Positions 16,098-19,621 of a DNA stretch of 64,000 bases are shown in pieces. The first letter of the stretch is position 1. Every line of letters starts with the position of its first letter. The notes beneath the pieces were generated by a model. That model had not been told where the DNA came from and did no database searches. It saw nothing but the letters and a program-made list of their open reading frames with translations. The DNA lies in the NCBI RefSeq assembly GCF_024502345.1, contig NZ_JALDNN010000001.1, one strand, 5' to 3'. This DNA is from Escherichia coli. Lineage in GTDB: Bacteria > Pseudomonadota > Gammaproteobacteria > Enterobacterales > Enterobacteriaceae. A program made the translations under genes and the position numbers.

Positions 16098-16299
16098 GTT
16101 TTGTAACCTGTTGTTAATTACTTCCAATCTCACCGCTTGGGGCATGGATGGGGCAAACTCACTCAATTTCTGGTTTAAAATGGATACCTGATCCTGAAAG
16201 TTTTCTGCCATCCACGATCCGTAAACGCGATAACATGTTTTGTCGGTGATGCTGCCAACTTACTGATTTAGTGTATGATGGTGTTTTTGAGGTGCTCCA

Positions 16300-16575
16300 G
16301 TGGCTTCTGTTTCTATCAGCTGTCCCTCCTGTTCAGCTACTGACGGGGTGGTGCGTAACGGCAAAAGCACCGCCGGACATCAGCGCTATCTCTGCTCTCA
16401 CTGCCGTAAAACATGGCAACTGCAGTTCACTTACACCGCTTCTCAACCCGGTACGCACCAGAAAATCATTGATATGGCCATGAATGGCGTTGGATGCCGG
16501 GCAACCGCCCGCATTATGGGCGTTGGCCTCAACACGATTTTCCGCCATTTAAAAAACTCAGGCCGCAGTCGGTAA
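16300..16575 (+). CDS. insA: IS1 InsA (transposition inhibitor / N-terminal part of transposase)
   Basis: 91-aa [46 protein letters not shown]... Confidence 0.9.
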
Positions 16576-16997
16576 CCTCGCGCATACAGCCGGGCAGTGA
16601 CGTCATCGTCTGCGCGGAAATGGACGAACAGTGGGGATACGTCGGGGCTAAATCGCGCCAGCGCTGGCTGTTTTACGCGTATGACAGGCTCCGGAAGACG
16701 GTTGTTGCGCACGTATTCGGTGAACGCACTATGGCGACGCTGGGGCGTCTTATGAGCCTGCTGTCACCCTTTGACGTGGTGATATGGATGACGGATGGCT
16801 GGCCGCTGTATGAATCCCGCCTGAAGGGAAAGCTGCACGTAATCAGCAAGCGATATACGCAGCGAATTGAGCGGCATAACCTGAATCTGAGGCAGCACCT
16901 GGCACGGCTGGGACGGAAGTCGCTGTCGTTCTCAAAATCGGTGGAGCTGCATGACAAAGTCATCGGGCATTATCTGAACATAAAACACTATCAATAA
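16494..16997 (+). CDS. insB: IS1 InsB frame (expressed as the InsAB' fusion)
   Basis: 167-aa ORF in the -1 frame relative to insA, inside IS1. Confidence 0.9.
16551..16557 (+). promoter_or_regulatory. IS1 programmed -1 ribosomal frameshift motif (AAAAAAC) generating the InsAB' transposase
   Basis: A6C heptamer at the insA/insB overlap. Confidence 0.75.
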
Positions 16998-17352
16998 GTT
17001 GGAGTCATTACCTTGCGTAAGATAGATGAGACAAACTGAGACGCATAATGGTTTGCAAGGCTCTAATACTTTGATGTTGAGGATGTGATGGGGCATGTAC
17101 GGGGCATAGTACAATGATGTCCATGCTGGTGTAGATAATCTCCAGGCTTATCCGGTGCGCCGTAAAACCCCGTCCTTCAGGGCAGGGATATAAGGCGTGG
17201 TTTTCCACCTAACCAGGTGTTTGCTGTTGTTCAATGTATTGGCGGATGACGGATATTGGCGCACCTCCGCAGCTACTGGCAAAATAGCCAGCACTCCACA
17301 AAACGCCTTTGTAGTAATACCTGACTGCAATATCTGGTCGATCTCGTCGCAG

Positions 17353-17640
17353 TCACCTACCCGATACGCCTTTGAGGCTGTTTACCAGACTGGATATCGC
17401 CAGTTTGGGAGGATAGTTAATTAACAAATGGACGTGATCTGGTTCGCCATCCATTTCAACCAGTTCAGCTTCAAAATCAGCACATACATTTGAAAAGTAA
17501 GTGCGTAGTTTTTCTGTCGCGTCATGGTCAAAAATCTGACGTCGGTATCTGGTGACAAAGACCAGGTGAACATGCATCAGGAAAACACAATGCCTTCCAC
17601 GCCGGATATCGGTTTCTTTTTTCACAGACCAAAGTATCAT
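17353..17640 (-). pseudogene. tnpA: IS200/IS605-family transposase TnpA, C-terminally truncated (HuH motif present, catalytic Tyr region missing)
   Basis: 95-aa ORF with the HuH motif HVHLL; IS200-type TnpA normally continues for about 50 more residues including the catalytic tyrosine. Confidence 0.6.
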
Positions 17641-17647
17641 TTGGCCT

Positions 17648-18856
17648 GTGAAACGACTACAAGCATTTAAATTCCAGTTAAGACCCGGTGGTCAACAGGA
17701 GCGTGAAATGAGGCGCTTCGCAGGCGCATGTCGTTTCGTTTTCAATCGTGCTCTGGCACGTCAGAATGAGAATCATGAGGCCGGTAATAAATACATCCCT
17801 TACGGGAAAATGGCTTCCTGGCTGGTTGAGTGGAAAAATGCCACTGAAACGCAATGGCTTAAAGATGCCCCGTCACAGCCATTGCAACAGTCACTGAAAG
17901 ACCTTGAGCGGGCTTACAAAAACTTCTTCCAGAATCGGGCTGCTTTTCCCCGATTCAAAAAGCGGGGACAGAATGATGTATTCCGCTACCCGCAGGGCGT
18001 TAAGCTCGATCAGGAAAACAGCCGTATTTTTCTGCCGAAACTGGGCTGGATGCGCTACCGGAACAGCCGTCAGGTCACGGGTGTTGTGAAAAATGTCACT
18101 GTCAGCCAGTCCTGCGGTAAGTGGTACATCAGTATTCAGACAGAAAGTGAAGTATCAACTCCGGTTCACCCTTCAGCATCAATGGTCGGGCTGGATGCTG
18201 GCGTGGCTAAACTCGCCACGCTGTCAGATGGCACAGTCTTTGAGCCTGTAAACAGTTTTCAGAAAAACCAGAAGAAGCTGGCGAGACTTCAGCGACAGTT
18301 AAGCCGCAAGGTCAAATTCAGCAACAACTGGCAGAAGCAGAAACGCAAAATACAGCGACTGCATTCCTGTATCGCAAATATCCGCAGGGACTACCTTCAC
18401 AAAGTCACAACGACCGTCAGCAAAAACCACGCAATGATAGTCATTGAGGATTTGAAGGTCAGCAACATGTCAAAGTCAGCAGCGGGTACGGTCAGCCAGC
18501 CGGGGCGCAATGTCCGGGCAAAATCAGGTTTAAACCGTTCGATACTGGATCAGGGCTGGTATGAAATGCGCCGCCAGCTTGAGTACAAGCAGCTCTGGCG
18601 TGGCGGTCAGGTGCTTGCTGTTCCGCCAGCGTACACAAGCCAGCGTTGCGCGTGCTGTGGTCATACAGCGAAAGAAAACCGCCTGTCACAAAGTAAATTC
18701 AGATGCCAGGTATGTGGATATACAGCGAACGCCGATGTAAATGGCGCTCGTAACATTTTAGCGGCGGGGCACGCCGTTCTTGCCTGTGGAGAGATGGTGC
18801 AGTCAGGCCGCCCGTTGAAGCAGGAACCCACCGAAATGATTCAGGCGACAGCCTGA
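17648..18856 (+). CDS. tnpB: IS200/IS605-family TnpB (OrfB): RuvC-like nuclease with C-terminal zinc finger, RNA-guided nuclease family
   Basis: 402-aa ORF; RuvC motifs (GLDAGV..., IVIEDLKV) and CxxC...CxxC zinc finger (CACCGH...CQVCGY); divergent from tnpA. Confidence 0.85.
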
Positions 18857-18895
18857 ACGTAGCAGGGATCCTCGTCCTTCAGGGCGTGGAGGATG

Positions 18896-19621
18896 TCAAC
18901 AAACAGGTTGAATTAACTCCGCGCCCTGGTTTTTGACATTACCTACCGCGCGCGATACCGGGTGCCAGGTGAACTGGTTTGCTGGCACACAGCCGTTGGT
19001 AGCAATTTCTGATGCTTCTTTACCGCCAATCTCTTGCCGCATCCATTCCTGTGCAGCTTCTGGCGACAGAACCAGCGGGCGGCGGTCATGAATGTCTACC
19101 AGACCCTGGTCTGCTGCAGCAGTGACAATTAAAAATCCTTCGGCTTCGTCACCACGCTCAAATGGTGTGCTACCTATCGCGGCCATAAAAATAGGTTGTC
19201 CATCAGCACGATAGATAAAAAAAGGCTGTTTTTTGTCGCCTTCTTTTTTCCACTCAAACCAGCCATCGGCAAAACAGATTGCCCGACCATGTTGCCAGAG
19301 CGGTTTAAACATGCGACTGGTTGCGGCAGTTTCTACGCGGGCGTTAATCAGCGGCGGTTTATCCCACCATCCGGGAGCATATCCCCAGAAAACCGGATCC
19401 AGATGAAGGTGTTCATCACGTTCACTGAGCAGAAGAACTTTGGTTCCCGGCGCGACGTTGTATCTGCCAATGGGTTCGGGATCGTAGGGAATATCGCGTT
19501 CAATATCTTCCGCGAGAAGCGCAAGGTAATCTTCACGCGAGGGAATATCGCGTTCAATATCTTCCGCGAGAAGCGCAAGGTAATCTTCACGCGTTTGGGA
19601 TTGGGCAAAGCGTCCACACAT
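18896..19621 (-). CDS. yedK: SOS-response-associated peptidase YedK (abasic-site crosslinking, SRAP family), carrying an in-frame 18-aa tandem duplication
   Basis: MCGRFAQS... with N-terminal catalytic Cys2; REDYLALLAEDIERDIP unit present twice. Confidence 0.85.
   Translation of the reverse strand: MCGRFAQSQTREDYLALLAEDIERDIPSREDYLALLAEDIERDIPYDPEPIGRYNVAPGTKVLLLSERDEHLHLDPVFWGYAPGWWDKPPLINARVETAATSRMFKPLWQHGRAICFADGWFEWKKEGDKKQPFFIYRADGQPIFMAAIGSTPFERGDEAEGFLIVTAAADQGLVDIHDRRPLVLSPEAAQEWMRQEIGGKEASEIATNGCVPANQFTWHPVSRAVGNVKNQGAELIQPVC
19497..19604. repeat. Perfect 54-bp tandem duplication (2 copies) inside yedK
   Basis: AGGGAATATCGCGTTCAATATCTTCCGCGAGAAGCGCAAGGTAATCTTCACGCG occurs twice head-to-tail (19497-19550 and 19551-19604). 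Confidence 0.9.

Follow-up and report, generated by a model that had tools for sequence, protein, structure and literature searches.

An IS609 insertion at the 3′ end of yedK in Escherichia coli: a junction placed to the base and a predicted TnpB guide RNA matching the gene

The model for transposition in the IS200/IS605 family of insertion sequences (IS) is IS608 of Helicobacter pylori. This element inserts 3′ of TTAC and has a right end that terminates in TCAA; it carries subterminal hairpins, of which the right-end one is recognised by the transposase TnpA, and it makes no target duplication; its tnpA and tnpB genes are co-oriented. Here we describe a copy of IS609, an element of the same family, located in a 64,000-nt stretch of the E. 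coli chromosome (contig NZ_JALDNN010000001.1 of assembly GCF_024502345.1; this whole stretch is called the window below), where its right end meets the 3′ end of the gene yedK. The juxtaposition of tnpB and yedK is an insertion junction which can be reconstructed to a single base, and no chance pattern. The 3′ end of tnpB and the right end of the element (~150 nt) very probably encode the scaffold of a TnpB guide RNA.

In the element ISDra2, TnpB is bound to an RNA of ~150 nt. Its sequence corresponds to the tnpB 3′ end and the element's right end, and it closes with ~16 nt of flanking DNA that form the guide. The target site doubles as the transposon-adjacent motif (TAM), so that it is the vacant donor joint which is cut (Karvelis et al. 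2021, PMC8612924). Sense transcripts from tnpB 3′ ends, including one in E. coli K-12, were described by Gomes-Filho et al. (PMC4615843), together with a UUCA-loop hairpin found both in these RNAs and in HgcC. For IS609 itself, copies of 1748 bp, the same size as the element in the window, have been tabulated, and a truncated IS609 is listed in the same table as “inserted within the yedK gene” (PMC6963479). In the literature searched, IS609 TnpB is mentioned only in a NAR paper of 2026, as one of nine orthologues purified there, and the passage concerned describes neither its TAM nor its RNA. The element is already catalogued, its presence in yedK has been noted previously, and its right end is a textbook one for the IS200/IS605 family. 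In the literature searched we found no description of the junction detail (split stop codon, added Cys, guide identical to yedK codons) and nothing on yedK together with a guide RNA.

The local gene order in the window is fliF, fliE, IS1, the IS200/IS605-type element, yedK, yedF, yedE. The junction is formed by the following features:

17152 to 18899, plus strand: IS609 (IS200/IS605 family), 1748 bp from left end to right end, delimited by empty sites, other copies and 27 relatives.
17148 to 17151, plus strand: TTAT, the target site at the left end and predicted TAM; the same TTAT stands at four other E. coli IS609 sites.
17648 to 18856, plus strand: tnpB, an intact frame of 402 aa.
18896 to 18899, plus strand: TCAA, the terminal four bases of the element; on the minus strand, T plus TGA, i.e. 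the third base of a Cys codon and the yedK stop.
18896 to 19621, minus strand: yedK (SRAP peptidase; Pfam SRAP E = 1.9e-50), 241 aa.

How exactly can the ends of the element be placed? We searched a boundary query (window positions 18600-19000) against E. coli genomes. Other E. coli IS609 copies, which adjoin ydcO or yfeD or interrupt a TetR-family or a sulfatase gene, align only to query position 300-303, i.e. 18899, and in genomes with yedK but without the element there the alignment begins at query position 301, i.e. 18900. The 27 relatives in other species, drawn from Citrobacter, Serratia, Pantoea, Morganella, Xenorhabdus, Photorhabdus, Klebsiella, Janthinobacterium and others, terminate in ...GGAGGATGTCAA (Arsenophonus: GGAGGATTTTAA) and then pass into unrelated sequence. 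Their termini read ...GTCAA in all except Arsenophonus (...TTTTAA), and their left flank is TTAT or TTAC.

An artificial query, the window with 17152-18899 cut out, aligns over its full length and in one piece to 456 complete E. coli genomes. K-12-like genomes align across the artificial junction, beginning 17 nt left of it. With a slash marking the junction, the aligned empty sites read ...ATAATCTCCAGGCTTAT/CAAACAGGTTGAATTAAC..., i.e. GGCTTAT/CAAACAGG and GGCTTAT/CAAACAGGTTGAATTA, and K-12 vs window diverge exactly at ...CCTGTTTG/A vs /TTGACATCC. An ambiguity of one base (C) at this junction is settled by the other copies and the relatives, nearly all of which end in TCAA. The empty sites have no duplicated target bases, and the arrangement TTAT/IS...TCAA/flank recurs at five E. 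coli sites. Because other copies, relatives and empty sites concur, the element is placed at 17152-18899, with a length of 1748 bp.

Both ends also carry a subterminal imperfect hairpin with a TTCA loop:

17168 to 17187, plus strand: left-end hairpin CCCCGTCC-TTCA-GGGCAGGG, read from the sequence and conserved in relatives.
18869 to 18890, plus strand: right-end hairpin with the UUCA/TTCA loop at 18878-18881; five of its nine pairs have compensatory changes.

Insertion 3′ of a tetranucleotide, a conserved right terminus, no target duplication and no terminal inverted repeats complete the traits of the IS200/IS605 family. The tetranucleotide rule, the TCAA terminus, the subterminal hairpins and the lack of target duplication are shared with IS608, and some of the relatives use its TTAC as well. 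Unlike IS608, in which the two genes are co-oriented, the element in the window has divergent tnpA and tnpB, and host and sequence differ too. In length (1748 bp) and divergent genes it is the same element as IS609 of E. coli, and this copy has a nonsense codon in tnpA. RefSeq names at the equivalent locus of other strains are “IS200/IS605 family / IS609 family transposase” and “RNA-guided endonuclease InsQ/TnpB”. The last 300 nt of the element are 98-100% identical to the copies beside ydcO and yfeD or inside the TetR-family gene, and 100% identical to some copies at other sites. Within the 64-kb window we found neither a second IS609 right end nor another target consisting of TAM plus guide.

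The consequences of the insertion for yedK can be read from IS-free alleles. In K-12 such a yedK is 669 bp long, terminates CCT GTT TGA TAA and codes for 222 aa; two empty-site strains with the window's left flank likewise have a yedK of 669 bp. The window and strain 042 (yedK 672 bp) terminate CCT GTT TGT TGA. The yedK strand of the vacant site carries the tandem stops TGA TAA, and the TTAT target is complementary to the last base of TGA together with the TAA after it. IS609 inserted 3′ of this TTAT, on the strand opposite yedK, with the cut falling between the G and the A of TGA. The terminal TCAA, read as T plus TGA on the yedK strand, completes a Cys codon and supplies the stop. With its right end at 18899 the element extends 4 nt into the yedK frame. 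YedK is therefore one Cys longer, its stop codon is element-derived, and the insertion left it otherwise intact.

These results agree with several points of a preliminary description of this DNA. It had placed the tnpB and yedK stops about 40 bp apart, and 39 bp (18857 to 18895) lie between the tnpB stop (18854-18856) and the yedK stop (18896-18898). The YedK C-terminus given there, ...ELIQPVC, is confirmed by translation, and the suspicion that the last codons had been reshaped proved right, GTT TGA TAA having become GTT TGT TGA with the gain of one Cys. In the alignment with IS-free alleles, which had been chosen beforehand as the test that could speak against this, the yedK 3′ ends were not identical.

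We also considered PVC as the ancestral end of YedK. This is ruled out by empty sites with both kinds of left flank, which end PV-TGA-TAA, and is contradicted as well by the independently fixed IS609 boundary. The 241 aa of YedK in the window are made up of 222 native residues, the one Cys from the insertion and 18 aa from an internal tandem duplication of 54 bp. This duplication is perfect (19486-19539 / 19540-19593) and repeats 18 residues near the N-terminus, giving 241 vs 223 aa; alignments to the best E. coli matches, which do not have it, are interrupted and fall into two parts. The duplication could be harmful to the SRAP fold, specific to this strain, or an artefact of assembly.

The same stop-codon geometry is found at other IS609 sites. 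Beside ydcO (L058, positions 2097-2100) CGA TAA TAA has become CGA TAT TGA, which adds a Tyr, and beside yfeD (L060, positions 2097-2100) GCA TAA has become GCT TGA, which is silent; in both cases the convergent gene ends in the TCAA of the element. Across ~38 distinct right-end junctions, a long convergent frame lies in the “xxT TGA” frame in 6 and in the other two frames in 2 and 1. Three sites in Serratia and Pantoea (right ends in L007, L019 and L043) have this “xxT TGA” frame. The pattern arises because TTAT complements ATAA, which contains TAA, and TCAA complements TTGA, which contains TGA. Insertions of this kind do almost no harm and are therefore likely to persist. Nearly silent insertion at ochre stops could explain the frame common to yedK, ydcO, yfeD and the Serratia/Pantoea sites. 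By a rough estimate the “A TAA” to “T TGA” swap shows no clear enrichment beyond survivorship, and we treat it as a lead.

The evidence for a guide RNA comes from an alignment of 28 sequences, in which the terminal 170 nt of this element are set against the 27 relatives. The predicted features are:

~18753 to 18899, plus strand: predicted guide-RNA (omega/reRNA) scaffold, formed by the tnpB 3′ end and the right end, from the covariation of the 28 sequences.
18761-18777, 18783-18824, 18791-18813, 18836-18860 and 18869-18890, plus strand: scaffold helices, from the alignment consensus.

The structure obtained with RNAalifold has 43 pairs, 16 of them with compensatory changes. On this structure 95.8% of the alignment cells are paired, vs 43-50% in slid-partner controls, and the observed values are reached in none of 500 shuffles. 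Four helices covary. Those at 18761-18777 and 18791-18813 lie wholly in the tnpB coding sequence, the one at 18836-18860 spans the tnpB stop, and the last, 18869-18890, is the right-end hairpin. One more helix, 18783-18787/18820-18824, is conserved with no double changes. The structured block has the same sense as tnpB and covers both the 3′ end of this gene and the right end, as expected of a guide RNA. We considered whether the covariation reflects nothing but recognition of a DNA hairpin by TnpA, and rejected this since three of the covarying helices are upstream of the right-end hairpin that TnpA recognises, up to ~140 nt from the end; an RNA is therefore the better explanation. The right-end hairpin could double as the DNA recognition hairpin of TnpA and the last stem of the guide RNA.

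Sense orientation at the tnpB 3′ end and a right-end-like UUCA-loop hairpin (here 18869-18890) are shared with sotRNAs, HgcC and RAGATH-18. Over their last 300 nt, the ydcO-adjacent copies of K-12-type strains share 98.3% identity with the window. The preliminary description had suggested a possible guide-RNA region at the tnpB 3′ end and right end, and the conserved covarying structure upholds this at the level of sequence; the RNA made from this particular copy we infer.

Where would such a guide point? Immediately beyond the scaffold lies host DNA:

18900 to 18915, plus strand: predicted 16-nt guide CAAACAGGTTGAATTA, placed by the ISDra2 rule of ~16 nt of flank (PMC8612924).

This 16-mer is the reverse complement of the yedK codons Leu-Ile-Gln-Pro-Val plus TG. 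The antisense orientation to the yedK 3′ region, which the preliminary description had expected of transcripts from the element end, holds for the predicted guide by sequence complementarity, and would hold for any tnpB read-through too. In the empty alleles of K-12 and SCU-122, TTAT followed by CAAACAGGTTGAATTA is intact. At the occupied site TCAA precedes the 16-mer in place of TTAT, and for this reason that site would escape self-targeting. Guide plus TTAT thus spells the IS-free yedK allele, and an active complex of TnpB and RNA would be expected to cut vacant sites, which would favour restoration of the element by recombination. At guide position 6 the empty allele of Z1323 (Z1323CEC0015) differs by a synonymous A-to-C substitution (CCT to CCG, Pro), which, were the system active, might let this natural variant escape cleavage.

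This arrangement agrees with ISDra2 in many respects: a homologous TnpB with an identical catalytic triad, an RNA over the tnpB 3′ end and right end, a guide derived from the flank, a target site doubling as the TAM, and TAM plus guide equal to the donor joint. It differs in the target (TTAT vs TTGAT) and in the inactive tnpA of this copy; here the RNA, its exact ends, TTAT as the TAM, and cleavage are deduced by analogy with ISDra2. The homing logic is ordinary for the family, and the only particular feature is that the guide is coding sequence. Because it is yedK coding sequence, the target in IS-free strains should be held constant by selection on YedK.

The two proteins of the element are in different states. 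TnpB has the Pfam domains HTH_OrfB_IS605, OrfB_IS605 and Cas12f1-like_TNB, all three above their cut-offs, and matches the ISDra2 TnpB structures (8bf8/8exa) with E = 7e-55. Its RuvC triad D183/E267/D363 aligns to D191/E278/D361 of ISDra2, the residues being identical. The second gene is damaged:

17209 to 17640, minus strand: tnpA (Y1 HUH transposase) pseudogene, Pfam Y1_Tnp E = 4.7e-26.

Its in-frame TGA (17353-17355, codon 96) replaces a Leu of the relatives, which continue to ~143 aa, and falls upstream of a C-terminal segment kept in intact relatives. Since tnpA carries this stop, the copy can move only if another source supplies TnpA. Strains 042 (RefSeq “internal stop”), TC24 and YD786 are annotated with the same lesion, which likely predates the spread of the yedK insertion.

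The insertion in yedK occurs in 1096 of 5426 complete E. coli genomes (~20%), 659 of which have the full tnpB-yedK junction. Alleles among the carriers are 99-100% identical. Some carriers have IS1 inside the query region, and many others have lost one segment:

18786 to 18885: 100 bp, present in the window and deleted in many other carriers, between GTGGAG repeats at 18786-18791 and 18886-18891.

In TC24 and YD786, the variants examined, most of the scaffold is lost along with the tnpB 3′ end, while TCAA and a 223-aa yedK remain intact. The deletion also runs the tnpB frame into antisense yedK, giving an annotated 387-aa TnpB that overlaps yedK.

Several observations weigh against a functional guide RNA that homes to yedK. 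Up to ~437 of the 1096 carrier genomes (~40%) are without the 100 bp of scaffold; the RNA must therefore be dispensable at the yedK locus, and such decay in several lineages argues against a host role for it. The tnpA stop would preclude self-excision, so that homing would have little to act on. The outermost helix (18753-18758/18891-18896) is conserved and shows no compensatory change. The single-sequence fold of 18740-18915 is unexceptional vs shuffled sequences (z = -1.5), for which reason we rely on covariation. A permissive Rfam scan gave two sub-threshold hits only, both on the plus strand and far below the gathering scores: HgcC (RF00062) at 18793-18912 with 19.3 vs 50 bits, and RAGATH-18 (RF03064) at 18783-18826 with 25.4 vs 44.9 bits. 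By score the predicted RNA belongs to neither of these two curated families. It shares with them the UUCA-loop hairpin, which is what the hits reflect; they confirm strand and position, not membership. A simple sigma-70 promoter scan of the plus strand, rated uninformative, found none for tnpB. A terminator scan, rated likewise, found no intrinsic terminator between the genes, on the plus strand after 18899, or on the minus strand just past the yedK stop.

If the junction is as described, then we can ask whether this copy does anything at all. It is possible, though we would not call it probable, that it is an inert fossil, with the IS609 right end as described and neither transposition, nor a useful guide RNA, nor any effect on yedK beyond the Cys. 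The dead tnpA in the window, 042, TC24 and YD786, the loss of scaffold and tnpB 3′ end from a large share of carriers, IS1 in the query region of others, the truncated copy in the published table (PMC6963479), and tnpB frames shifted or stopped in copies at other sites all suggest such decay. However, the tnpB of the window has its full 402-aa frame with catalytic residues, and the last 300 nt are completely identical to copies elsewhere, both of which speak against this reading. Moreover, TnpA could act in trans, the matching genomes having matches at a median of 3 places, not all of them IS609.

Two further explanations give the element a role for the host. Antisense control, by a guide RNA or tnpB read-through that pairs with the yedK mRNA 3′ end and alters its stability or translation, is in our opinion very unlikely. 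What speaks for it is geometry only, namely convergent genes with a 4-nt overlap of the element with the yedK frame, and the absence of an intrinsic terminator in the scan of both strands beyond the junction. The 100-bp deletion variants, however, retain an intact 223-aa yedK, so the host tolerates the loss, and the same geometry at ydcO and yfeD suggests a by-product of target choice rather than an adaptation specific to yedK. Still more improbable, to the point that we give it hardly any credence, is a domesticated TnpB retained together with its RNA for an RNA-guided function of the host, as in TldR-type regulators. A dead tnpA beside an intact tnpB, and an insertion that has reached ~20% of complete genomes, would fit this. 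But TldR-type regulators have lost nuclease residues and transposon ends, and the TnpB in the window keeps both, its RuvC triad being undegraded and the two ends intact between TTAT and TCAA. The scaffold is deleted in many carriers, and their diversity is too low (99-100% identity) to show selection.

Returning to the predicted guide RNA, there is an unlikely extension of this reading: the immobilised IS609 may still make a nuclease against IS-free yedK, which would be a drive or a barrier to recombining alleles, or the exchange of ATAA for TTGA may explain the shared frames. The former, if true, would mean an allele-specific drive or barrier that cuts IS-free yedK DNA arriving by recombination.

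The region to the left of IS609 has a history of its own. An IS1 copy (16245-17012, 768 bp) stands between fliE and IS609 without a 9-bp target duplication, and in comparison with E. coli 042 a segment of 2807 bp with emrE, ybcL and ybcM is absent precisely at the IS1 borders. These borders and the loss fit a putative IS1-mediated adjacent deletion. To the left of the insertion site (window 17014-17151) only 17 nt are common to K-12, where yedL sits. Between fliE and yedK the gene content varies, and at least three versions of it exist: K-12 has yedL-yedN-intG, 042 has emrE-ybcL-ybcM, and Z1323 and SCU-122 have an ompC-like porin.

Our results leave the current understanding of the IS200/IS605 family unchanged. 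They provide a base-exact example of an element of this family at the end of a gene, with almost no damage to it and with a predicted guide aimed at the unoccupied allele. For annotation, they mean that in ~20% of complete E. coli genomes YedK ends in an additional Cys and its stop codon comes from a transposon. The full element, the 100-bp scaffold deletion and the empty site form a natural allele series at a chromosomal gene, suited to tests of TnpB homing or of antisense effects.

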